DNA of 64,000 nt. It comes from Candidatus Bathyarchaeota archaeon (lineage in GTDB: Archaea; Thermoproteota; Bathyarchaeia; 40CM-2-53-6). Positions 7,491-19,434 of this stretch are shown piece after piece. The stretch is from the NCBI GenBank assembly GCA_963833125.1, contig CAWHWX010000016.1, positions 96,001-160,000 on the forward strand. Direction: 5' to 3'. Positions within the stretch are counted from its first letter, which is position 1, and the number at the start of each line of letters is the position of its first letter. The notes beneath the pieces were generated by a model. That model worked only from the letters and a program-made list of their open reading frames with translations. It did no database searches and was not told the origin of the DNA. A program made the position numbers and the translations under genes.

Positions 7491-7583
7491 GGGCTCGTGG
7501 TCCAGCCTGGTTAAGACGTCGCCCTCACATCTCCTAGGTGAGACCGGCGAAGATCCCCGGTTCAAATCCGGGCGGGCCCACCA
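7491..7583 (+). tRNA. tRNA-Val(CAC) with canonical 37/38 intron (7530-7544) and encoded CCA
   Basis: Acceptor GGGCTCG/CGGGCCC; anticodon stem TCGCC/GGCGA; anticodon CAC at 7526-7528; T-arm CCCGG-TTCAAAT-CCGGG. Intron TCTCCTAGGTGAGAC forms a BHB motif (CTCA pairs with TGAG, 3-nt bulges CAT and ACC). Confidence 0.95.
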
Positions 7584-8010: not shown

Positions 8011-10677
8011 TCAGCTTAGCTTAAGCTCTGCAAAAACGTTCTCCTGTTCTCTCCGGATGGAGCAGCCAAGTTTTTCGCAGAGTCGGATCATCCTGAGATT
8101 CTCAGCCATCACTGTACCGTAGATCGATTCAATTCCCTTCTCCTTAGCGAATTCAATTAGCATATCGACTAACTTGACACCGAGACCCTTTCCCTGATAT
8201 TTGTCGGCAACCACGACTGCGAATTCTCCCCGTTTCTTATTGGGTTCGAGAATTAATCGGCTCACTCCGATCTCAAAAGTTCGGTTTCCTTCTCGGGTTT
8301 CGGCGATGATTGCCATCTCCCTGTCGTAGTCGATGTTGCAGAAACGGACGAGGGCCTCATGTGGGAGGTCCTTGATTATTTGGAAAAATCTGAATCGGCT
8401 CGTTTCCGTAGACAAGCCTCTTATGAATTCTAACTCTATGGGTTCGTCTTCCGGTTTTATGGGCCTTAGAGTAACTTCGGTCCCATCTTTCATTCTCCAG
8501 GGCATGACATATTTTGACGGGTAAGGAGTGATTACCAGATGGGGGTAGGGTTCGGTATGGTCGAGAGCGCGGGGATCAATAATCATCCTTGCGTCGAGAA
8601 CGGAGAATTCACCCTTGGAGGCGATGAGTGGGTTGATGTCCATCTCAGCGATTTCAGGGAAGTCAACGATTAGATTGGAGAAGCGTACCATGATCTCTTC
8701 GAGGGGTCGTATGTCGACAGGTTTCTTGTTCCGTAGACCTTTCGTAAGTGCTTTGAATATCTTTGTTTCTTCCATGATGCGATGTGCGAGAATCTGATTT
8801 AGCGGCGCGAGTCCGATCGATACATCGTTAATGAGTTCAACTCCTGTCCCGCCCATTCCAAATAGAATCACAGATCCAAAATCCTTGTCCTTTTTCGCGC
8901 CTAGGATGAGTTCGTAGTCGATCTCAGATGCCATTTTTTGCACATAGATACCGTCGATTTTAGCTTCAGGATACGCTTTGTGGGCTCTATCGATAATGGC
9001 CTTGTACGCATCCTTGACCGCTTGAGCTGACTCCATGCGGATAACGACTCCACCAATGTCCGTTTTGTGAAGAATGTCTTCAGACGAGATTTTCAACGCT
9101 ACTGGGTAACCAATGTCTAACGCGATCATTGCCGCTTGGTCTGCACTTTTACTCAACGCGCCCTTCGCTCTCGGGATTGCATAAGCATCGAGGAATCGGT
9201 CAACTTCAGATTGATTGAGGGCTTTTCGCGTCTTCGCTGCCTTGCGAATCAGTACTTTGAGATGGCTCTTTGGCGGAGAGAAGTCCACGCGTAATTCTTG
9301 TGGGGTTTGGTAGAGCTGATCGAGGTTTCTTCGGTATTGGTACATGTACGTGTAGGTCTTTATCGCTTCTTCAGGCGTTGAGTAAGTCGGTATGTCGTTT
9401 CGGTGGAATATTTCGCGACTTTCCCTAACGCTGCTCTCGCCCATCCAGACCGTAAGCATTGGCTTGCGTCTGTCCGCGGCGATTTTCGTAACGGCTTCGG
9501 CGAGCTGCGTGGGTTGAGTCGTTCCTTGGGGAGTGTAGATTACAAGGAGCCCATCAACATTCGGATCCGCAATGCAGGTCTTCACTGCGAGTTCATACCG
9601 AGAGACGTCAGCGTCCCCTAGTATGTCGAGTGGGTTTCCTCGGCTCCAGTATGGAGGAAGGGCTCCATTCAGTATTTTCATGGACTCGTCAGACAATTGC
9701 GCTAATTGGCCACCATGAGTGACAATTGAATCAGCTGCTAAGACCGCGGGTCCTCCGGCGTTGGTGACGATGGCTAAGTTCGGTCCCGCTGGCAGAAACC
9801 TTGAGTCTAGGACGGTGGCGCAATTGAAGAGGTCTCCAATCTCGTCGACCATCACAACGCCGGCTCTCTTGAAGGCGGCCTCGTAGACTGCGAAGTCACC
9901 CGCCAGTGCGCCTGTATGTGATGATGCTGCCTTTGCGCCCGCAGAGTTTCTTCCCGCCTTGATTACAATAATGGGTTTTGTGCGTGCAAAGCCTCTGGCC
10001 GAACTCATGAACTTCTTAGCATTTCCGACGCCTTCCATGTAGATGATGATGCTCCTAGTGTTTGGGTCCTCGCCAAGATAATCGATCATATCCCCATAAT
10101 CGATGTCTAGGGTCGATCCTAGCGAAGCAAAAATGCTGAAGCCTATGCCCGTGCTTACAGCCCAGTTGACTATCGCTGATCCCAATGCTCCGCTCTGTGA
10201 GATGAATGCAATTTGGCCAGGTTGAGGGTTGTCTCGGAGGAATGTGGCATTGAGGGCTACTTGTGGCCTCGCCACTCCCACACAGTTTGGTCCTAGAATC
10301 CGAATGTCGTGCATCGATTGAATTTGCTTAATCTCGCTCTCTAGTTTGGCGCCTTCAGCTCCGATCTCTCGGAACCCGGCCGAAATGATGACGGTGCCGT
10401 CCACGCCAGCTTTCGCGCACTCCGCTACTATGGACGGTACAGTCCTTGCCGGCGTAGCGATTACAGCCAGATCGACGTGTTCTGGTATCTTGGATATCGA
10501 TGGGTAACACTTCAATCCCAAGACGGTATCCTTGTTTATGTTCACTGGGTAGATTTTCCTGCGATCCTTCCCCAATAGTAGGTTTCTCGTCAGAGATTGA
10601 CCGATCGATCCCTCGCTCTCAGAAGCCCCGATTATAGCAACGACTTTGGGGTTCAGCATTTTCTCGATACTGGCCAT
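8011..10677 (-). CDS. ADP-forming acyl-CoA synthetase (alpha+beta)-GNAT fusion (Pat/PatZ-like)
   Basis: IIGAS, GPNCVG, SQSGA, SHTGALAG, TNAGG, NPLD, ATP-grasp GYPVALK...HKTDIGGV, DINP, C-terminal GNAT (QGKGLG). Confidence 0.9.
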   Translation of the reverse strand: MASIEKMLNPKVVAIIGASESEGSIGQSLTRNLLLGKDRRKIYPVNINKDTVLGLKCYPSISKIPEHVDLAVIATPARTVPSIVAECAKAGVDGTVIISAGFREIGAEGAKLESEIKQIQSMHDIRILGPNCVGVARPQVALNATFLRDNPQPGQIAFISQSGALGSAIVNWAVSTGIGFSIFASLGSTLDIDYGDMIDYLGEDPNTRSIIIYMEGVGNAKKFMSSARGFARTKPIIVIKAGRNSAGAKAASSHTGALAGDFAVYEAAFKRAGVVMVDEIGDLFNCATVLDSRFLPAGPNLAIVTNAGGPAVLAADSIVTHGGQLAQLSDESMKILNGALPPYWSRGNPLDILGDADVSRYELAVKTCIADPNVDGLLVIYTPQGTTQPTQLAEAVTKIAADRRKPMLTVWMGESSVRESREIFHRNDIPTYSTPEEAIKTYTYMYQYRRNLDQLYQTPQELRVDFSPPKSHLKVLIRKAAKTRKALNQSEVDRFLDAYAIPRAKGALSKSADQAAMIALDIGYPVALKISSEDILHKTDIGGVVIRMESAQAVKDAYKAIIDRAHKAYPEAKIDGIYVQKMASEIDYELILGAKKDKDFGSVILFGMGGTGVELINDVSIGLAPLNQILAHRIMEETKIFKALTKGLRNKKPVDIRPLEEIMVRFSNLIVDFPEIAEMDINPLIASKGEFSVLDARMIIDPRALDHTEPYPHLVITPYPSKYVMPWRMKDGTEVTLRPIKPEDEPIELEFIRGLSTETSRFRFFQIIKDLPHEALVRFCNIDYDREMAIIAETREGNRTFEIGVSRLILEPNKKRGEFAVVVADKYQGKGLGVKLVDMLIEFAKEKGIESIYGTVMAENLRMIRLCEKLGCSIRREQENVFAELKLS

Positions 10678-10817
10678 TGTCAACTCGTCTGATTCTGAGC
10701 TTACGGCTAGTGATAAACGGGTTATCGATGGTTCCTGACTATGACAATTTGAATTGGGGACGATTTGGAACCGAAACTTTCACACATAAGCGAATCCGTG
10801 CCTTTTCTGACATTTGG

Positions 10818-11804
10818 TTAGCGCATCAAAAATGCCAGTACGTATCCCAAGGTCAGCGTCGCTCCAAAGGTCATCTGGAGAAAGGCCGTGCCTCGAACAG
10901 CGCGGCTGAGCGGCTTGCCTTCCACTCCGGAAGCGACAAACCGAGTGAGCCGATACGCTTGTGGAATCGTTAGGAACGCTAAGAGGGTCGACAGAGGCGC
11001 AGAGTTAGTCGCAACAAGCCCTGCTAAGATGATATACGCTCCAGCGATCATCGCGTAAAAGACCAAACGGGAGAAAACCCTACCTCGCTCGATGCCCCAC
11101 GACCTACTTGCCAGTACTGCCCAAGTGATCCGATTTCGCTCCTTGTCTTGTACAATGTCTCGCAGGTTGTTAGCGTGTAGGATGGCCATTACTAGGAGCC
11201 CTACGGGGAGGGAGACAAGCAGGGGGGACCAAGCGAGGCTTCTAGCTTGAACATAGTAGCTGGCAACGACCATGACAGGACCCATGAAGATGAAAACCTC
11301 GAGCTCCCCAAGGCCCCGGTAGCCAAGCGAGACAGGTTTCGCTGTGTAGAACCAAGCTGCCAAAACACTCGTTAGTCCGAGAATTAGGATGATCCATCCA
11401 ACTTGCTTGACTATGTACAAACCGACTATGACACCGAAAGCAAAAGCTACTATTGCAGCCCAGAGCACCTGCCTCGGCCTGAGTTTTCCTTCAAGAATTA
11501 CGCCTGCGGGGCCCAAAGAGTCCGGTTTGTCAACCCCTTGCACATAGTCAAAATACTCGTTAGCCAAGTTTGTTCCTGCCTGCATGGCGACGGACCCGAA
11601 TAGGGTGAGCAGAAAGAGAAACCAGTCCGCATGTCCACCATACCACGCTATAGCGGAACCTACAAGCACGGGGACTATCGACGCTGGATAGGTGAATGGC
11701 CTGAGTGCAATGTACCAGACATGTAACGAATGCCTGTCATTCCGTTGCGGCACAGCCATAACACGTCTTAACCGCGAACCATTCGGGTGCCTGTAATTCA
11801 TCAT
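10818..11804 (-). CDS. menA: 1,4-dihydroxy-2-naphthoate prenyltransferase
   Basis: RPFTYPASIVPV, NLANEYFD..GVD, YRGLGE, ILHANNLRD; multi-TM protein; men cluster context. Start uncertain (could be about 11760). Confidence 0.9.
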   Translation of the reverse strand: MMNYRHPNGSRLRRVMAVPQRNDRHSLHVWYIALRPFTYPASIVPVLVGSAIAWYGGHADWFLFLLTLFGSVAMQAGTNLANEYFDYVQGVDKPDSLGPAGVILEGKLRPRQVLWAAIVAFAFGVIVGLYIVKQVGWIILILGLTSVLAAWFYTAKPVSLGYRGLGELEVFIFMGPVMVVASYYVQARSLAWSPLLVSLPVGLLVMAILHANNLRDIVQDKERNRITWAVLASRSWGIERGRVFSRLVFYAMIAGAYIILAGLVATNSAPLSTLLAFLTIPQAYRLTRFVASGVEGKPLSRAVRGTAFLQMTFGATLTLGYVLAFLMR

Positions 11805-11822
11805 GTCAGGTTGCTTGGTTAC

Positions 11823-12633
11823 TTACCAAGGAGGTTGATTTCGAAAGCGAGCGTAATTTGGTGCGCGCTTCTCAAGGAAGGCTTTCGTACCTTCCTTGCA
11901 TTCGTCACTCGAGTAGTAAAGCGCCGTAGCTCCGTGTGCGAGGTTTTGGATGCCGTAGACATGATCCGTGTCTGAGTTGAAGGCGTACTTCAGAAAGCGC
12001 AAAGCAGTCGGTGCACGCTGGAGAAGTTCCTTAGCCAAGGACATCACCTCGTTTTCGAGTTGATCAGGTGGAAACACAAAGTTGACGAGCCCCATGTCGA
12101 GAGCTTCTTGGGCAGAGTAACGACGGCACAAATACCAGATCTCTCGAGCTTTCTTTTCGCCAACAATGCGTGCGAGATAAATCGACCCGAAACCACCGTC
12201 GAAGCTACCGTATTTGGGTCCGATTTGTCCGAAGACCGTGCGAGTGGAGGCAACAGTCAGGTCACATAACACATGAAGGACGTGCCCCCCACCAATGGCG
12301 TACCCATCAACCATTGCAATGACGGGTTTCGGTATCTCTCGTATCAACCGGTGGAGGTGGGTAACTTGCAGTCTCGGAGTTCCCGGAATCGTCCTCGTAG
12401 CCGCCCTCACCGCGAATGCTAACGTCGCCCCCTGAACAGAAGTTACCATTTGTCCCGGTGAGAACAACAACTCCAACTTCCCGATCGTACCAAGCGTCTA
12501 AGAAAGCCTGTCGCATCTCATCTATCGTCAGCGGTCGAAAGGCATTGAGCACTTTAGGCCGGTTCATCCGAACGAACGCTACGCCGTCCTTCTTTTCGTA
12601 GAGTATGTCTTGGAACTCCATTTCAAATACCAC
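11823..12633 (-). CDS. menB: 1,4-dihydroxy-2-naphthoyl-CoA synthase (frameshift near 12390)
   Basis: [50 protein letters not shown]. Confidence 0.95.
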
Positions 12634-12677
12634 ATTTCCTAGTTTTAGTCAGCGCTTGCTTCTTAAGACGGTCGTTT

Positions 12678-13904
12678 TCAAACCAAGCCGAGCGATCTCA
12701 GGCGGGCAATCTCATTTCGGGAGTGGCCGAGCATTTCTTGGAGCACTTCATCGGTGTGTTCGCCTAGGTCGGGCGAAGGACCTTGGGGGCCTGAAGAAGC
12801 GCCGTCTACTTTGAAGGGGGTGTTGGCAACTTTCCAGTTTCCCAATCTCTTGTGGGGTATCTCTGCGATCATGCCTCGGTAAAGTACCTGAGAATCCTTG
12901 GCTACGGAGTCAATAGCGTTGACTGGACCGGATGGAATTTCAAGCCTAGAGAATTCTTCAAGCCAGGCTTGAGAAGTTTTCTTGCGCATAGCTTCTTCGA
13001 TCAAGGGCGCGAGAACATCGTAGTTCTGTACTCTAGATGGCGCGTCACTAAAGCGAGGATCTTTCGCGAGTTCAGGGTGCCCGATCGCGGAACAGAAGCG
13101 GTTCCAAGGCTCAGAGCTGTCGGAGATTAGCGCAACCACGATGTATCCGTCTTGTGTGGCAAATGATTGAAAAGGAACTGCGGCTGGGTGGCGTGATCCC
13201 AATGGCCCCGGCACCTTACCCGTGGCAAAGTACCTTGAAAACGCATTCTCCATCATAGTTACTTGACAATCTAACATTGAAATGTCGATATTTCGCCCCT
13301 GTCCGGTGCGTTCCCTTTCCCATAGGGCGACGAGTATTGCTAACGCAGCAAAGAGTCCGGCAACGCTGTCGCCAAGCGAGGCCCCGGGCCGCACAGGCCG
13401 CCCATTGGGTTCCCCGGTCACGCTCATCATGCCCCCCATCGCCTGAACAATGATGTCTAGAGCCGGATAGTGGGTGTAGGGGCCGCTTTGGCCGAAGCCT
13501 GAGATGGATGCGTAAATCAGGCGGGGATTCAGAGCCCTCACACTCGCATAGTCGAGCCCGAATCCCTTCATTGTTCCAGGCACGAAGTTCTCAACCAGAA
13601 CATCAGCGTGCTGGCACAGTTCCCGTGCCATCTTCTGTCCCTCCTCGCGGGAGAGATCTAGGGTGACGCTTTTTTTCCCTCGATTTACGCTCATGAAATA
13701 TGCGCTGTCTCCGCTTACTTGAGGACCCAAGCGCCGCGCTTCATCTCCCAAGCCTGGCCGCTCAACTTTGATCACCTTCGCGCCAAGGTCTGCGAGAAGC
13801 ATCGTGCAGAAGGGACCAGAAAGCAGGTGGCTGATTTCTAGGACCGTTATCCCAGCTAGAGGACTTAACGCAAGGCCTCTCGCGGGAGAGTCTCGATCGA
13901 TCAT
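12678..13904 (-). CDS. Family III (CaiB/BaiF/Frc) CoA-transferase
   Basis: GPFCTMLLADLGAKVIKVE, NRGKKS, ADVLVENF.PG, SISGFGQSGP, catalytic Asp in LGDSVAG, PDLGEHT. Confidence 0.93.
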   Translation of the reverse strand: MIDRDSPARGLALSPLAGITVLEISHLLSGPFCTMLLADLGAKVIKVERPGLGDEARRLGPQVSGDSAYFMSVNRGKKSVTLDLSREEGQKMARELCQHADVLVENFVPGTMKGFGLDYASVRALNPRLIYASISGFGQSGPYTHYPALDIIVQAMGGMMSVTGEPNGRPVRPGASLGDSVAGLFAALAILVALWERERTGQGRNIDISMLDCQVTMMENAFSRYFATGKVPGPLGSRHPAAVPFQSFATQDGYIVVALISDSSEPWNRFCSAIGHPELAKDPRFSDAPSRVQNYDVLAPLIEEAMRKKTSQAWLEEFSRLEIPSGPVNAIDSVAKDSQVLYRGMIAEIPHKRLGNWKVANTPFKVDGASSGPQGPSPDLGEHTDEVLQEMLGHSRNEIARLRSLGLV

Positions 13905-13988
13905 GAGGCACAAGATCAAGCTCAGCGAAATTATACTCTGCGGTTGGGCTGTTGCTCGCTGAGGCAGGTTCAGCGCTAGAGCGACTAA

Positions 13989-14800
13989 CTACCAGTGCGA
14001 TTCACGGAGGAAGTCGAGTACGACTCTGTTGAACTCTTGAGGCTTCTCTATGTGCGGGGCATGTCCTGCGCCTGCTATAATGGAAAGACGGCCGTTTCGT
14101 AGTTTACTGCACATCTCTTTTGCGATCGCGCTGAACTTGTGGTCGTATTCACCAGCAATGCAGAGGACCGAAATGTTAAGCTTGGAAAGCGATTTGTGGA
14201 AGGATGGTTGGACACCGGAGCCGGCCTGTGCGCAAAGAATTCGCGAGCCCCGTGGGATTGTTTGCGAGCCGTTGGTTTCTGATGTGTTCTTGGACTTTGC
14301 GGGGAAGCAGTTTTTGAGTGGCGAATATTGGTTGTTGCTCCCAGTATTTCGAGAATTTCTCAACGCCTGCTTTCGTGATTAGGCGTGCCAGCGCCTCATC
14401 GCGTTTCTTCCTGCGTGTCCTTTGTTTTGGTTCGATAATTCCTGGGGATGCGCCTTCAAGCACTAGGCACCCGCACTTGTTAGGCATTAACGCAGCCGCT
14501 GCGAGTGCGATTCGGCCTCCAATAGAGTATCCTAACCAGCAAGCACGAGAGACATCTGATTTGTCGAGGACTGCGGCAATATCGACGATGGAGCGTTGAA
14601 TACGATATCTCTTGGGATCATCGGGGGCATCTGAACCACCGTGCCCTAGCAAGTCGACTGTGATGATGGTGTATCCATTCTGTGCCTCTTGTACGAACTG
14701 ACTCCAAGTGGACATGGATCCTGCGAATCCGTGAAGTGCGACGATTGCTGGTCCCGAACCCGCGGACTTTGACATTGAGGTTGATTTCGTTGACCAGCAC
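13989..14800 (-). CDS. menH: SHCHC synthase, alpha/beta hydrolase (frameshifts near 14765 and 14225)
   Basis: LHGF, DLLGHG, GYSIGGR.A, R..RD..LA, W..QPIF.TQ, GEYDHKF, AGHAPH.E. Confidence 0.9.
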
Positions 14801-14804
14801 GCCT

Positions 14805-16599
14805 TCAGGTCCGCTCCGTGAGCGTGCTCTCCGCCGCCTCTGTCGAAAGGGACCAAATGCGACGATGAAGCTCAACGTTTCGGTCTCTGTCAGTTTGCAA
14901 TTCCACTACAGCTGTGCCTTTGGATCCGATGTTCCGTGAAACGGCGGTGTGGAATTCTTCCCATGATGTAACCTTGGAATAGGTTAGACCGTAAAGGGAG
15001 GCCGCTGCTTGGAAGGTAAGGCCGTGTGGAGTTGCGAAGTACTTTTCGAAGTAGTCCTCGTACTCTCGCTGGGCAAGAAAAGAGAAAATGCCCCCGCCGT
15101 CATTGTTTGCTAATACGATTGTTGTGTTAGGGTTGTATTTCTTTGCTGCCAGCAGGCCATTCATGTCTTGATAGAACGAAAGGTCGCCGACTACGAGTAC
15201 TGTTGGCTCTTGGGTAACTACGCTGGCTCCTAGGGCGGTTGAGATCACACCATCTATTCCGCTTGCTCCTCGATTGGACAAGAATCGAATCTCTTGAGAG
15301 GTTGACGGATAGAATGAGTCAAGGTCACGCACCGGCATGCTGTTGCCAGCAAACAGCGTCGCTTTGTTCGGAACGAAAGTCGCTAAATTGGTGAAAATCT
15401 TCCCTTCGAACATCTCTTCGATCTTGCTCATCTGGTCATGAATAACCTGGCGAGTTCTCTCAGCAACTCGCATCCACAGTCCGGACCATTCTCCCTTAGG
15501 GCGAGTCGCGGTCTCAGCGGCAAGTTCTCTTGCGAATTGATTGGGGTCCGTCTGAACCATGTCGGTAGCAGTATGCATTGGGTCTTGCCAGTTCCCTTCT
15601 TGGATTAGTATTTGGCGGGCTCGGTGATTTTGCTCAATGTAGTTTTGTAATGCTTTAGACGTGGGTGTCGCACCGAACCGCAGGATAATTTCAGGTTCCA
15701 ATTCCCGAACCATTTTCGTGGAGCGTAGGAAATCGTCGTAGCAGTCAACGTTCAGTCCTCGGTCGTGTATGCCGCATCGAACTTGAGATAGGGGGTCGGC
15801 TAGTATTGGGAAACCTAGGCGGTTGGCTAACGTCGAGACTGCATGTGGGAAGCCTAAATCATCTTGTGGGCCGCAGACAATTATTCCATTCCTCAGAGAC
15901 TGTATCTCACTTCCCAACTCCTTGACTTTCTCTATGTTGGTGGAACGTCGCCCGTTCTGCACATCGGTGTAAGGTCTGCCCTTCTTTCGACCTTCCCAAG
16001 CGTCTTGGACTTCGACGGAAGTTTGCTCAGGGATATCCGAGGGAACGATTTTGGGTACTAATGGTTCTCCGAACGGGAAGTTGATCTGCACAGGACCAGC
16101 GGGCGATTGAATCGCAGTGCTCAATGCGCGGCATGTCATTTCACGCACATACCTCAGCAAATCAAGCTTCATTTCTGGACTAGCCATGTTGACGGACCAT
16201 TTTGTGTGCCCTCCGTACATCCGGGTCTGGTCGATTGTTTGATTCGCACCCCATTCCCACAACTCTGGAGGACGGTCCGCTGTCAAAATCAGGATTGGCA
16301 CATGTGAATAGCACGCCTCGACCACAGCGGGAAAGAAGTTAGCCGCTGCTGTACCAGACGTGCTGACGATGGCGACCGGCTGGTTAAGGGCGCGGCTCAT
16401 CCCAAGCGCGAAATACGCTGCTGAACGCTCATCAGAATGGAGCCCAGACTTTGATGAGCTGCTGCTGCGCCAGGCTCATCACCAAGGGCGTTGATCGCGA
16501 ACCGGGGCAGATGCATGCATGTCGCAGCCCCGAACGGGCCAGTTCATCAACAAATGCTTCGGAGAAAGCGTAGTTGCGATTCGGTGGGAGCGGCATCAT
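14805..16599 (-). CDS. menD: SEPHCHC synthase (TPP-dependent; frameshift near 16443)
   Basis: Restored N-terminus ...FVDELARSG..ICPGSRSTPL...DERSAAYFALG, then TSGTAAAN, TADRP, GANQTIDQ, NSMPVRD, NRGASGIDG, GDLSF. ATG overlaps the menF stop (ATGA). Confidence 0.93.
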
Positions 16600-18047
16600 G
16601 CCACTCCCAAGGCGGTCAGGAGCGGCTTGAATTTTATCATGGTTTCCTGATCTTCACGGTCTGGGTCGGAGCCCGAAACAATCCCGGCCCCAGCGTACAG
16701 TAACGCCTCATTGCCGCGCAAGAGTGCACATCGGATTGCGATGGCAAATTCCCCGTTTCCATTCTTGTCAACCCATCCGACAGGTCCCGTGTACCAACCG
16801 CGATCAAACTTCTCAAGCCTCTCGATCATTTCAAGGGCTGGCTCGAGAGGCGTGCCACCTACAGCTGGCGTTGGATGTAAGCCACTCACAAAATCTAGGA
16901 CATTGGAACCTTTCTTTGGTCGACCCGTAAAACGGGTCGCTAGATGCTGAACGTTGCCAAGTCGCATCAAGTGGGGAGCGTCGTCCCACTGAAGTTTAGA
17001 GCAGAGCCTTCCCATTCGTTCAGAAATCCAGTTAACGACAACTTCGTGTTCCATTCGTTCCTTAACATTTCCTAACAGCCATTCCGAAAGCTGTGAGTCC
17101 TCGTTCTCCGAAGTGCCGCGGGGAGCCGAACCTGCTAAACAGGTCGAACTCACTTCTTCTCCATGAATGCTCACCAACTCCTCAGGTGAAGCCCCCACAA
17201 AAGATGTCCCTCGACGACAGAAAGCGAATACGCGACATTCAGGATAATTAGCTGCGAGGCTTCGGAGGACGGCTTCTGGAGGTATTGGTATTCCAGCGCG
17301 TAACTTGAGGGTACGTGCCAAAGTGACTTTGGTTAGCCTTCCATCTTTGACTTCGTCCAGAGCCTGTTCCACACTTCGCCGCCAAAGATCATCAGCCGAT
17401 TGAGATTTTATTGAAGCCGACACAGGTTTAGATGAGTCACCAGGCGAGTCGAAAAGCTCGGCAGCTTGAAGCGTCAGATCCTTTAGTACAGAATCAACGT
17501 CCGTGCGTCCGTTAACGACGACATTGACGGTCAACCAGCGCCGACCGTTCGGTTGGGATGTGATCATCCATCGGGGCAGTGTCAGGAGGCCATCGTGAAA
17601 ATCTTCCCAAAGTCCATCAGCAGGCGGTCGTGGGTTGAATCGGAATCCTCCCATGAAAACCGGTCCGGGACCGCCGTTTTCCTCAACAATCGCCGGGCTC
17701 ATCGTGTCCTGGAGTAAGGTAGCGGCTTGTTGGAATCTCCGAGGGCCCTCAACGACTAGGTCAGCAGCATTACCCGCACCTACTATCCAAGATTCGTCAG
17801 CGGGGAGGGCCCAATAATTCCTAGTATTATCAACTCGCGCTGCAGCGGAAAAGACATGCACCGGATCAATTTCATGTGCAAGGTGCTGGGTGAGCGATAC
17901 AAGTACCGGTCTGTTCACTTCGGTTGAGCGTCGTTTTCCATCAGAAATGAGCCCCAGCACTCTGTCCAAGGAAATCCTATAGGGACGTTGAGGTAAGCGA
18001 TCCATCGCACTGTCTTGCGACCGTATCCCTATGGATCTCTCTCGCAT
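16596..18047 (-). CDS. menF: Isochorismate synthase
   Basis: KVTLAR, FVGASPE, LAGS, KERMEH, LHPTPAVGG, RGWYTGPVGW, AIRC, AGAGIV.GS. Start uncertain. Confidence 0.92.
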   Translation of the reverse strand: MRERSIGIRSQDSAMDRLPQRPYRISLDRVLGLISDGKRRSTEVNRPVLVSLTQHLAHEIDPVHVFSAAARVDNTRNYWALPADESWIVGAGNAADLVVEGPRRFQQAATLLQDTMSPAIVEENGGPGPVFMGGFRFNPRPPADGLWEDFHDGLLTLPRWMITSQPNGRRWLTVNVVVNGRTDVDSVLKDLTLQAAELFDSPGDSSKPVSASIKSQSADDLWRRSVEQALDEVKDGRLTKVTLARTLKLRAGIPIPPEAVLRSLAANYPECRVFAFCRRGTSFVGASPEELVSIHGEEVSSTCLAGSAPRGTSENEDSQLSEWLLGNVKERMEHEVVVNWISERMGRLCSKLQWDDAPHLMRLGNVQHLATRFTGRPKKGSNVLDFVSGLHPTPAVGGTPLEPALEMIERLEKFDRGWYTGPVGWVDKNGNGEFAIAIRCALLRGNEALLYAGAGIVSGSDPDREDQETMIKFKPLLTALGVA

Positions 18048-18285
18048 TCTCTCTCGCTTCCTCTTCTTCCCGAAGACAGCCTTTGTCGCTCATAATTTCT
18101 CAGACAGAAGAACCTATCCTAATTCTAAGCTCCAATGACCAACTGCGCAAAGTAGGCACGGTATCGTTGATAAAAGGAGAACTGCAAATAGATGGGGACA
18201 TATGGCGTTACTTAGCCAGAACGCCGTTGGATTCATTTGATGGAGTACGAAAGGCATCATTTAGGCTAGACGGGAGGTTGGCAAA

Positions 18286-19434
18286 ATGAATTCTCCGCAA
18301 CTGACGCCTATCGACTCCCTAGAGTTGCGCATTATCCGGTTGCCGCTTGTTGCTCCGTTCGAGAGCAGTACTAGCGTAGAAACCGTCAAGGAGGCTCTGC
18401 TCGTGCTCGTTGAAAAGGAAGGGGTTGTTGGTTATGGGGAATGCGTTGCTGGGACTGGGCCTTGGTATAGCGAAGAAACGATAGAGTCTGCGGGATACGT
18501 CATAAAGCAATTCCTAGCGCCATTACTCTTTTCAAATGCTTTCACGAATCCTGCACAGTTTCTTGATGGCACTCGACGATTAAGGGGGAACAATATGGCA
18601 GTAGCTTCGGTCGAGATGGCACTTTGGGATCTCATGGGAAAATTAAAGCGACAACCGCTTTCCAAGCTACTGGAAGGTTCCAAGACAGAGGTTGAAGTTG
18701 GAGTAAGCGTAGGGATTCAACCCTCAATTGAAAAACTGGTCGATAAGGTCGCATTGCGTGTTGCAGAAGGATACAAGCGAATAAAGACAAAAATTAAGCC
18801 AGGGTTCGATCTCGAACCCGTGAGAGCTATCAGGAAACGCTTTCCTGATATTCCTCTCCAAGTGGACGCGAACTCGGCCTACACCCTTGAGGATTTGCCT
18901 CTACTGAAACAACTTGACGGGTTCAACCTGTTATTGATTGAGCAGCCACTGGCGCCTGACGATATCATTGATCATTCAAAATTGCAAAAGCACCTTTCGA
19001 CACCGGTTTGCCTTGACGAGAGCATACGTAGCATGGACGACGCGAGGCAGGCGATAGAAATTGATGCGTGCAGGGTGATAAATATCAAACCCGGACGGCT
19101 GAGAGGTCTGAAATGTTCGAGACAATTGCATGATTTCTGTATGGCACGGAAAATTCCAGTATGGTGCGGGGGAATGCTTGAAACTGGCATTGGTAGAGCG
19201 TTTAATGTCGCGTTAGCTTCCTTGCCGGGATTTACTCTTCCAGGTGACACGTCCGCTAGCAGACTGTATTTCAAGAAGGACATAATCACCAAAGAGTTCG
19301 AACTAACTGAGAACGGAACGCTTGAGGTACCGCGTGAACCTGGAATAGGGGTTCAAGTGGACACGAAGTTTCTTGAATCACAGACAATTTCGGAGGAAAG
19401 GATACTGCCACGAGCAATCGGTTTCAAACCGTAA
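18286..19434 (+). CDS. menC: o-Succinylbenzoate synthase (Firmicute-like OSBS/NSAR enolase subgroup)
   Basis: KRIKTKIKPG, DANSAY, IEQP, LDES, NIKPGR, WCGGMLETGIGRA, LPGDTSAS. GGAGG upstream; divergent from menF. Confidence 0.85.
   Translation: MNSPQLTPIDSLELRIIRLPLVAPFESSTSVETVKEALLVLVEKEGVVGYGECVAGTGPWYSEETIESAGYVIKQFLAPLLFSNAFTNPAQFLDGTRRLRGNNMAVASVEMALWDLMGKLKRQPLSKLLEGSKTEVEVGVSVGIQPSIEKLVDKVALRVAEGYKRIKTKIKPGFDLEPVRAIRKRFPDIPLQVDANSAYTLEDLPLLKQLDGFNLLLIEQPLAPDDIIDHSKLQKHLSTPVCLDESIRSMDDARQAIEIDACRVINIKPGRLRGLKCSRQLHDFCMARKIPVWCGGMLETGIGRAFNVALASLPGFTLPGDTSASRLYFKKDIITKEFELTENGTLEVPREPGIGVQVDTKFLESQTISEERILPRAIGFKP

Follow-up and report, generated by a model that had tools for sequence, protein, structure and literature searches.

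The locus described here raises the question of how o-succinylbenzoate (OSB) is activated in a menaquinone gene cluster that has no gene for the OSB-CoA ligase MenE. The window, which is the whole stretch of 64,000 nucleotides that was analysed (G000:C16:96001-160000), belongs to genome G000. This is a 3.07-Mb metagenome-assembled genome (MAG) of 39 contigs with 87.8% completeness and 7% contamination, and its relatives carry the labels Dehalococcoidia or Chloroflexota. The classical set menF, menD, menH, menC, menB and menA is all present in the window, and a gene for a family III coenzyme A (CoA) transferase stands between menH and menB. Its place, its phylogeny and the search for MenE make it fairly probable that this transferase replaces MenE in a Dehalococcoidia lineage. 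It would act as an acyl-CoA:OSB CoA-transferase, probably with succinyl-CoA as the donor.

Conserved Place of the Transferase Gene

The homologue survey covered the best 80 loci on contigs of one genome per species. The transferase gene lay between menH (or menC) and menB-menA in 10 of these loci (L015-L020, L022-L024 and L026), and the remaining 70 loci had no men neighbours. The Men proteins of the 10 loci showed 34–89% identity to those of the window. The distance from the transferase gene to the downstream menB was 26–264 nt in the nine men-linked loci that reached menB. Nine further clusters of this type were found in genome G229 and in an order sample of 151 genomes around G001, giving 19 in total.

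The surrounding gene order was varied. In L016, L019, L020, L022 and L026, menC was placed between menH and the transferase gene and pointed in the opposite direction. The gene after menA was menG/ubiE in L017 and L018 and a thioesterase gene in others. Despite this variation, the transferase gene was upstream of menB in every cluster. Genome G229, which is of the same genus as the window and 96% complete in three contigs, had the exact gene order of the window with every gene intact. An earlier note on this DNA, made from the sequence alone, had expected CaiB-type homologues to be conserved next to men genes, and the 19 clusters agree with this expectation.

The record of L015 (CAZHKA010000024.1) is titled 'uncultured Candidatus Bathyarchaeia archaeon', and the proteins of its men cluster are 59–89% identical to those of the window. 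In coordinates and scores, the genome of L015 is identical to G300, which is placed in the Dehalococcoidia-like genus of the window MAG. The taxonomic label of L015 looks wrong.

A Dedicated Clade with an Active-Site Signature

The men-linked transferases grouped together in both trees. In the first tree (83 homologues), 11 men-linked copies fell within one clade of 14 rows with an SH-aLRT support of 100. The second tree had 55 rows and omitted the duplicates L114, L115, L117, L120, L124, L126 and L127 and the majority of the distant homologues in the earlier tree. It showed one clade made up of all 19 men-cluster copies and L025, L029 and L030 (SH-aLRT 100, branch length 0.38). Outside this clade were 16 of 17 copies from MenB-negative genomes and three of five unlinked copies from MenB-positive genomes. 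The transferase matches of G657, G778, G752, G698 and G723 were left unplaced, as was a second copy each from G002, G663, G719 and G776.

PF02515 matched the transferase over profile positions 1–366 of 366, at residues 21–389 of the 413-aa open reading frame (ORF), and no other Pfam family matched. The protein has no AMP-binding domain (PF00501), so it can be a functional analogue of MenE at most and is no member of its family. It also has no 4HBT or 4HBT_2 domain, which places it outside the hot-dog family of MenI. The motif LGDSVAG, which had been pointed out before as carrying the catalytic Asp, is present in the protein. When residues are counted from the ATG at 13904, this is Asp179, which is aligned to the Asp in the MTD motif of the relative SUGCT; the equivalence to SUGCT Asp212 depends on an offset count. 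All 107 aligned homologues have the catalytic Asp. The residue after it, Ser180, was found in 22 of 22 clade members, and of the other 85 homologues 81 had Ile, Leu or Val and 2 had Ser there. Leu177, Asn361, Phe364 and Pro373 were each present in 22 of 22 clade members. These residues and the trees suggest that the men-linked transferase is a new specificity clade within a known enzyme family.

Co-Occurrence with the Menaquinone Pathway

In a class sample of 301 genomes, MenB above the cut-off was found only in G229, G300 and G294 of the window's genus and, as a split gene, in the genome of the window itself. Transferase copies with at least 77% identity occurred only in G000, G229 and G300, and in G294 a partial copy lay next to menB where the contig ends. 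Identity was at most 48% in the remaining 21 genomes that had transferase matches at E ≤ 1e-112. The other nine sampled genomes of the genus had neither MenB above the cut-off nor a transferase match at E ≤ 1e-112. A MenB-like match in G133 (302.8 bits) was rejected, as this genome had no MenD and no MenE, its transferase was only 36% identical, and it probably has no men pathway.

In the order sample, MenB (E ≤ 1e-85) was found in 23 of the 151 genomes, MenD above the cut-off in 16 and the transferase (E ≤ 1e-120) in 36. The clade transferase was inside the men cluster in 13 of the 16 MenD-positive genomes (G001, G002, G641, G650, G663, G676, G699, G720, G735, G741, G750, G763 and G776). The contig of G741 stops after the transferase gene and that of G676 breaks within menB. 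The contig of G668 shows menF-menD-menH and menC and then nothing more. In G673, the transferase was a relic (SVNRGKRNITLD) between menC and menB (L155 10617-10934, G673:C25). A 436-aa ORF between menH and menB of L155 matched no family and was discarded as spurious; the true gene at that place is menC, encoded on the other strand next to the relic.

MenD was not found in G631 and G633, which kept menB-menA and carried the clade transferase unlinked elsewhere in the genome. The transferase was therefore retained with the lower half of the pathway in these genomes.

The menB-menA pair without a detected MenD was found in eleven genomes, namely nine of the order sample, including G634, together with G631 and G633. 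Loci of this kind are L153, L154 and L156 (G647, G738 and G703) and L107-L109 (G633, G631 and G634). Such genomes would fit a salvage of OSB from other organisms, an idea that has been put forward for gut bacteria (passages of PMC4746308).

In a phylum sample, MenB (E ≤ 1e-85) was found in none of 401 genomes of at least 90% completeness, so this sample yields no contrast set. The classical men pathway is rare in the phylum and class samples, and where it is found it is of the transferase type.

Search for MenE

MenE was searched with the model TIGR01923, whose cut-off is 330.15 bits. The genome-wide check that the earlier note had suggested gave a best score of 105.5 bits in the window's own genome (87.8% complete), and nothing passed the cut-off. 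No match above the cut-off was found in G001-G005 (0/5), in G229, G300, G294 and G133 (0/4), in G631-G635 (0/5), in G647, G670, G673, G703 and G738 (0/5) or in the order sample (0/151). G300 and G003 had identical coordinates and scores and are apparently one genome.

Because the sensitivity of the MenE model is incomplete, a PF00501 census, a scan of candidates and a positive case were added. The census counted one gene in G002, one in G004, two in G001 and three in G229; G000 had about four, all in fragmented form. The AMP-binding genes of G002 and G004 resemble the acetate-CoA ligase of G001 in ORF length and MenE-model score. This ligase, in a 2.19-Mb record titled chromosome 1, scored 885.6 bits (cut-off 729). 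The second ANL enzyme of G001 (C1:1414282-1416789; L101 282-2789) is an 835-aa multidomain protein that is matched best by a long-chain ligase model. It has an AMP-binding domain at about residues 44–525 and a C-terminal extension of about 300 residues that is unassigned to a family.

The positive case was G670, the only MenD-positive genome that had an intact cluster and no transferase match at E ≤ 1e-120. Its order is menF-menD-menH-menB-menA followed by a gene for a 459-aa ligase. The ligase was matched best by models of MenE, with 301.7 bits for TIGR01923, 289.1 bits for NF002966 and 200.9 bits for NF006539, versus 239.0 bits for the long-chain ligase model. At E ≤ 1e-82 the MenE model matched in 18 of the 151 genomes, of which 17 had no MenD and the eighteenth was G670. 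None of the 13 transferase-type genomes of the order sample had a MenE match at this threshold. Transferase and MenE-like gene exclude each other in the same kind of cluster within one order, which is one contrast case and carries no statistic.

AMP-ligase candidates with 198–282 bits in G003, G005, G631, G633 and G634 were rejected as MenE since no MenE model passed. Their best fits were generic families of acyl-CoA ligases, in most cases long-chain-fatty-acid ligases and in one case malonyl-CoA synthase, and PRK06187 passed in three. These candidates could conceivably act as promiscuous OSB-activating enzymes. The 890-aa Pat-like protein encoded next to menA in the window was likewise rejected as a general ADP-forming OSB ligase, as its gene adjoins only 3 of the 19 clusters.

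Thioesterases and Release of DHNA

Hot-dog genes of PF03061 were found in all five genomes checked, and PF13279 genes in four of them. Of the 18 clusters with a visible downstream side, seven had a gene for a 4HBT_2/YbgC-like thioesterase of about 138 aa immediately behind menA, namely L023 (G001), L024 (G004), L158 (G650), L162, L163, L164 and L166. The genome of the window has a homologue of this cluster thioesterase with 33% identity at C14:24450-24887, in an unrelated neighbourhood. Because thioesterases occur in these clusters and in all the genomes checked, hydrolysis is favoured as the route by which 1,4-dihydroxy-2-naphthoate (DHNA) is released from DHNA-CoA. An obligatory transfer of CoA from DHNA-CoA to OSB is unlikely, at least in those lineages.

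The earlier note had considered that MenI may be missing or replaced, an idea that these thioesterases do not support. It had also suggested a test of whether the transferase is anti-correlated with menE and menI. Within the order, the transferase was anti-correlated with the one MenE-like gene found in a men cluster, that of G670.

Proposed Reaction and Alternative Explanations

OSB is a succinyl-aryl ketone dicarboxylate. In the proposed reaction, the donor acyl-CoA, likely succinyl-CoA by family resemblance, would bind to the transferase, and CoA would pass by a ping-pong mechanism through an anhydride of Asp179. The CoA would be placed on the aliphatic carboxyl of OSB, and the resulting OSB-CoA would be taken by MenB, which is encoded directly downstream. 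DHNA-CoA would then be hydrolysed by a separate hot-dog thioesterase, whose gene is inside or outside the cluster depending on the lineage. The DHNA would be prenylated by MenA. The replacement of MenE that was first suggested from the window alone is strengthened by the conserved place, the clade, the signature and the anti-correlation with MenE. The replacement of MenI suggested along with it is not.

Several observations weigh against this proposal. The transferase-type clusters all come from a single class, Dehalococcoidia, and may go back to one ancestral cluster, so the 19 loci should not be counted as independent events. Almost all of the genomes are MAGs, that of the window being incomplete and partly contaminated as given above. 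In G673, whose cluster is otherwise intact, only a relic of the transferase is left, and the search for a MenE-like gene gave none. Nine MenB-positive, MenD-negative genomes have menB-menA with no clade transferase shown and no MenE, and the genome of L030 (G632, 1.4 Mb) has the clade transferase while MenB was not found in it. Genomes of the window's genus (g1), that of the window among them, have a FadD-like ligase that could be an OSB ligase; the G229 copy reached 232.7 bits with the MenE model, and the G000 copy is in fragments. Subunits of NDP-forming acyl-CoA synthetases occurred in five of five genomes checked. The model TIGR01923 passed in only four of seven MenB-positive control genomes, and the MenE-like gene of G670 was also under its cut-off. 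The acceptor, the donor and the regiochemistry are what we infer.

The transferase might instead move CoA from DHNA-CoA to OSB and so replace MenE and MenI together, with CoA being catalytic after priming. The family III enzymes Frc, CaiB and BbsEF, which are among the relatives in the PDB, pass CoA from the product ester of a pathway to its substrate in such loops. The transferase gene is directly before menB, and 11 of the 18 clusters, including that of the window, have no thioesterase gene after menA. Against this, the seven clusters with the thioesterase gene belong to two separate parts of the transferase clade, PF03061 genes occur in all five genomes checked, the genome of the window has the C14 homologue, and a priming donor would still be required. 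We consider such a loop unlikely, also when the closed reaction DHNA-CoA + OSB → DHNA + OSB-CoA is limited to clusters without a thioesterase, such as those of the window's genus. If it operated, the naphthoate ring would be made with catalytic CoA; once primed, it would consume neither ATP nor a thioester, and the cell could do without MenE as well as MenI. Another role would be at the exit, where the transferase would stand in for MenI and conserve the thioester by passing the CoA of DHNA-CoA on to succinate or acetate. OSB would then be activated by an unrecognised ligase of the ADP-forming ACD type or by a promiscuous AMP-forming enzyme. Candidate sources of such a ligase are the ACD beta-type ATP-grasp_5 genes in all five genomes, the Pat/ACD-like 890-aa gene after menA in the window and G229, and the FadD-like ligases of genus g1. 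However, the ACD genes do not lie near the men clusters and the Pat-like gene adjoins few of them. G002 and G004 each have one AMP-binding enzyme, which is acetate-CoA-ligase-like, and a second exit enzyme would be redundant in the clusters with a thioesterase. This role seems distinctly improbable to us.

The transferase could also be a dicarboxylate CoA-transferase of ordinary metabolism, caught up in an ancestral operon and passed on together with it. The restriction to one class would fit, operons can hold unrelated genes, and paralogues are many, with five places in the genome of the window and 36 of the 151 order-sample genomes matching. G673, moreover, lost the transferase and kept the rest of the cluster. 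This explanation has a small probability, because the gene holds its place through several cluster rearrangements and carries a clade-specific active-site signature. The clade was also not found in genomes without men genes, except for L030, and it was kept unlinked along with menB-menA in G631 and G633. A mere passenger would leave the pathway without a CoA-activation step. A last possibility is that a normal MenE was overlooked, either because the MAGs are incomplete or because a divergent ligase scores under the cut-off. The genome of the window is incomplete and full of frameshifts, and the MenE model misses some of the control genomes. The exhaustive PF00501 census of G001, G002 and G004, however, returned one or two genes per genome and none was MenE-like, and G229, at 96% completeness, had none above the cut-off. 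The relaxed threshold gave no match in the 13 transferase-type genomes, whereas it detected the gene of G670. We regard an overlooked MenE as very improbable.

Gene Content of the Window and Frameshifts

The features of the cluster are listed in Table 1. The genes menF-menD-menH, the transferase gene and menB-menA are all on the minus strand, and menC alone is on the plus strand, divergent from menF. The gaps between consecutive genes were 18–134 nt, and the divergent spacer between menC and menF was 238 nt. MenF, MenD, MenC and MenA scored above their cut-offs. ORFs and family matches reproduce the order, shared orientation, tight spacing and divergent menC that had been read from the sequence before. 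Profile scans of contig C16 also agree with the earlier reading that the 64 kb hold neither MenE nor a hot-dog gene. PF00501 had zero matches on this contig, and its sole PF03061 match was at 304904-305119, beyond the window.

Table 1. Men cluster and adjoining gene in the window (positions of the window).
Gene	Position	Strand	Family match
Pat-like 890-aa protein	8011-10683	-	Pfam: NDP-forming acyl-CoA synthetase-like domains and C-terminal GNAT
menA (DHNA polyprenyltransferase)	10818-11804	-	TIGR00751, 171.5 bits (cut-off 102.15)
menB (DHNA-CoA synthase)	11823-12633 (pieces 12307-12633 and 11823-12476)	-	TIGR01929, 90.8 and 257.1 bits
Family III CoA-transferase, men-linked clade; proposed acyl-CoA:o-succinylbenzoate CoA-transferase	12678-13904	-	PF02515, 433.5 bits
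menH (SHCHC synthase)	13989-14856 (pieces 14176-14856 and 13989-14363)	-	TIGR03695, 171.9 and 68.5 bits
menD (SEPHCHC synthase)	14805-c.16599	-	TIGR00173, 389.4 bits (cut-off 244.2), from profile position 57
menF (isochorismate synthase)	16596-18047	-	TIGR00543, 326.9 bits (cut-off 224.75)
menC (o-succinylbenzoate synthase)	18286-19434	+	TIGR01928, 354.9 bits (cut-off 200.65); MR_MLE domains

The Pat-like gene is on the same strand as menA and 134 nt downstream of it, and its counterpart in G229 is 90.5% identical. It neighbours the cluster in the window, in G229 and in L015, where it is on the other side and on the opposite strand, and it is not found at the other nine men-linked loci of the homologue survey. 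The Pat-like gene is a neighbour within genus g1 only and probably stands outside the pathway.

Rfam gave a 90-nt tRNA at 7491-7580 (+) of the window with 50.8 bits, and ARAGORN gave no tRNA in the window.

Single extra bases, which the earlier note had overlooked, break menD (near 16442), menH (14227) and menB (12376-12386). The menD ORF lacks profile positions 1–56, and about 50 N-terminal residues are in another frame owing to the insertion near 16442. A fourth 1-nt insertion lies at about 14766-14768, near the start of menH. Sequence comparison showed that G229, of the same genus, has none of the four insertions, and its menB and menH are intact. The sites were also compared with Logan contigs from four public DNA runs of three studies, which are 95–99% alike. 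Among the runs covering each site, the extra base was omitted in 4/4 at 14227, 4/4 at 16442, 2/2 at 14768 and 1/1 at 12376. Parts of the stretch were without contig cover in some of the runs. The transferase ORF is unbroken and has no indel relative to these contigs. For positions 11800-16600 of the window, the listing of runs gave none of RNA. Because the insertions are absent in G229 and in the public contigs, the breaks in the men cluster are probably assembly errors of the MAG, or at most strain-private lesions, and not signs of a decaying pathway.

Single-base frameshifts also split several AMP-ligase genes and two CoA-transferase paralogues of G000. Breaks of this kind outside the window are at C9:74300-76050, C18:172400-174100 and C23:13900-15300 and on C26 and C38. 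Given the many single-base frameshifts, gene calls of G000 will come out fragmented.

Novelty and Implications

Full-text searches of the open literature turned up no CoA-transferase that acts on OSB or DHNA-CoA in menaquinone synthesis. This is in line with the earlier remark that a CoA-transferase at the MenE or MenI step was not known to be described. The same remark presented the variant as saving ATP. The saving holds on paper, and it is unlikely as a selective reason because the quinone flux is presumably tiny; we take it rather for a side effect of a non-orthologous replacement.

If the transferase does replace MenE, the classical menaquinone pathway would not depend on this ligase everywhere. 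The transfer of CoA to OSB would be a new enzyme function that needs a new Enzyme Commission entry. An aromatic biosynthetic substrate would join a transferase subfamily known for small dicarboxylates. Tools for pathway calling would wrongly score the men pathways of these Dehalococcoidia as incomplete. The Dehalococcoidia concerned are widespread environmental lineages, some of them labelled SAR202 or groundwater and sediment lineages. MenE has been named as a target in antibacterial inhibitor work, hence natural bypasses are worth knowing. The Asp-Ser signature together with Leu177, Asn361, Phe364 and Pro373 provides a handle for specificity studies.

Comparison with Known Systems

The transferase scored under every NCBIfam equivalog cut-off. 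Its best model was NF052585 (succinate-glutarate CoA-transferase) with 346.3 bits versus a cut-off of 750. NF008511 (YfdE, CoA:oxalate) gave 318.6 bits versus 522, and TIGR03253 (Frc) gave 281.4 versus 504.2. The solved relatives were, by score, SUGCT (291.9 bits), YfdE (288.2 bits), Frc-type enzymes (194–284 bits) and the two subunits of BbsEF (157.6 and 146.6 bits).

BbsEF, the succinyl-CoA:(R)-benzylsuccinate CoA-transferase (PDB 9fn0), activates an aryl-substituted succinate from succinyl-CoA. It belongs to family III, and its chemistry comes closest to the OSB activation proposed here. It is, however, a distant relative of the window's protein, a two-subunit heteromer and a catabolic enzyme. 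YfdE (acetyl-CoA:oxalate, PDB 4hl6) and Frc/YfdW (formyl-CoA:oxalate) share the family and the Asp mechanism with the window's protein. The protein nevertheless falls under both of their cut-offs, and the Frc matches span only the N-terminal half. No oxalyl-CoA decarboxylase was found among the scanned genes of the cluster.

SUGCT (succinyl-CoA:glutarate or succinate-hydroxymethylglutarate CoA-transferase, PDB 9br6 and 9br7) is the best solved relative, with residues 13–408 and the catalytic Asp aligned. This family III enzyme takes CoA from succinyl-CoA and hands it on to dicarboxylates of C3–C8, with Asp212 as the catalytic residue (passages of PMC10871334). According to the same passages, its active site is large and open, and the aromatic losartan carboxylic acid binds beside the catalytic Asp. 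In the window's protein the catalytic Asp is followed by Ser, where SUGCT has Leu, and the other clade-specific residues also set the two apart. SUGCT serves lysine and glutarate metabolism, whereas the gene of the window's protein is in a menaquinone operon.

MenE, an AMP-forming enzyme of the ANL superfamily, would share with the transferase the product OSB-CoA, the pathway and the place in the operon. Fold and mechanism are unrelated, and the proposed transferase route would draw its energy from a donor thioester, with neither ATP nor an adenylate involved. Non-orthologous replacements in the men pathway have been predicted before from gene context, namely MenJ for MenI and MenY for MenH (passages of PMC4746308). 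The replacements of that study are limited to MenI and MenH, and menE is named there as a pathway gene. The likeness to the present case is that a pathway hole is filled by an unrelated family, as suggested by gene context.

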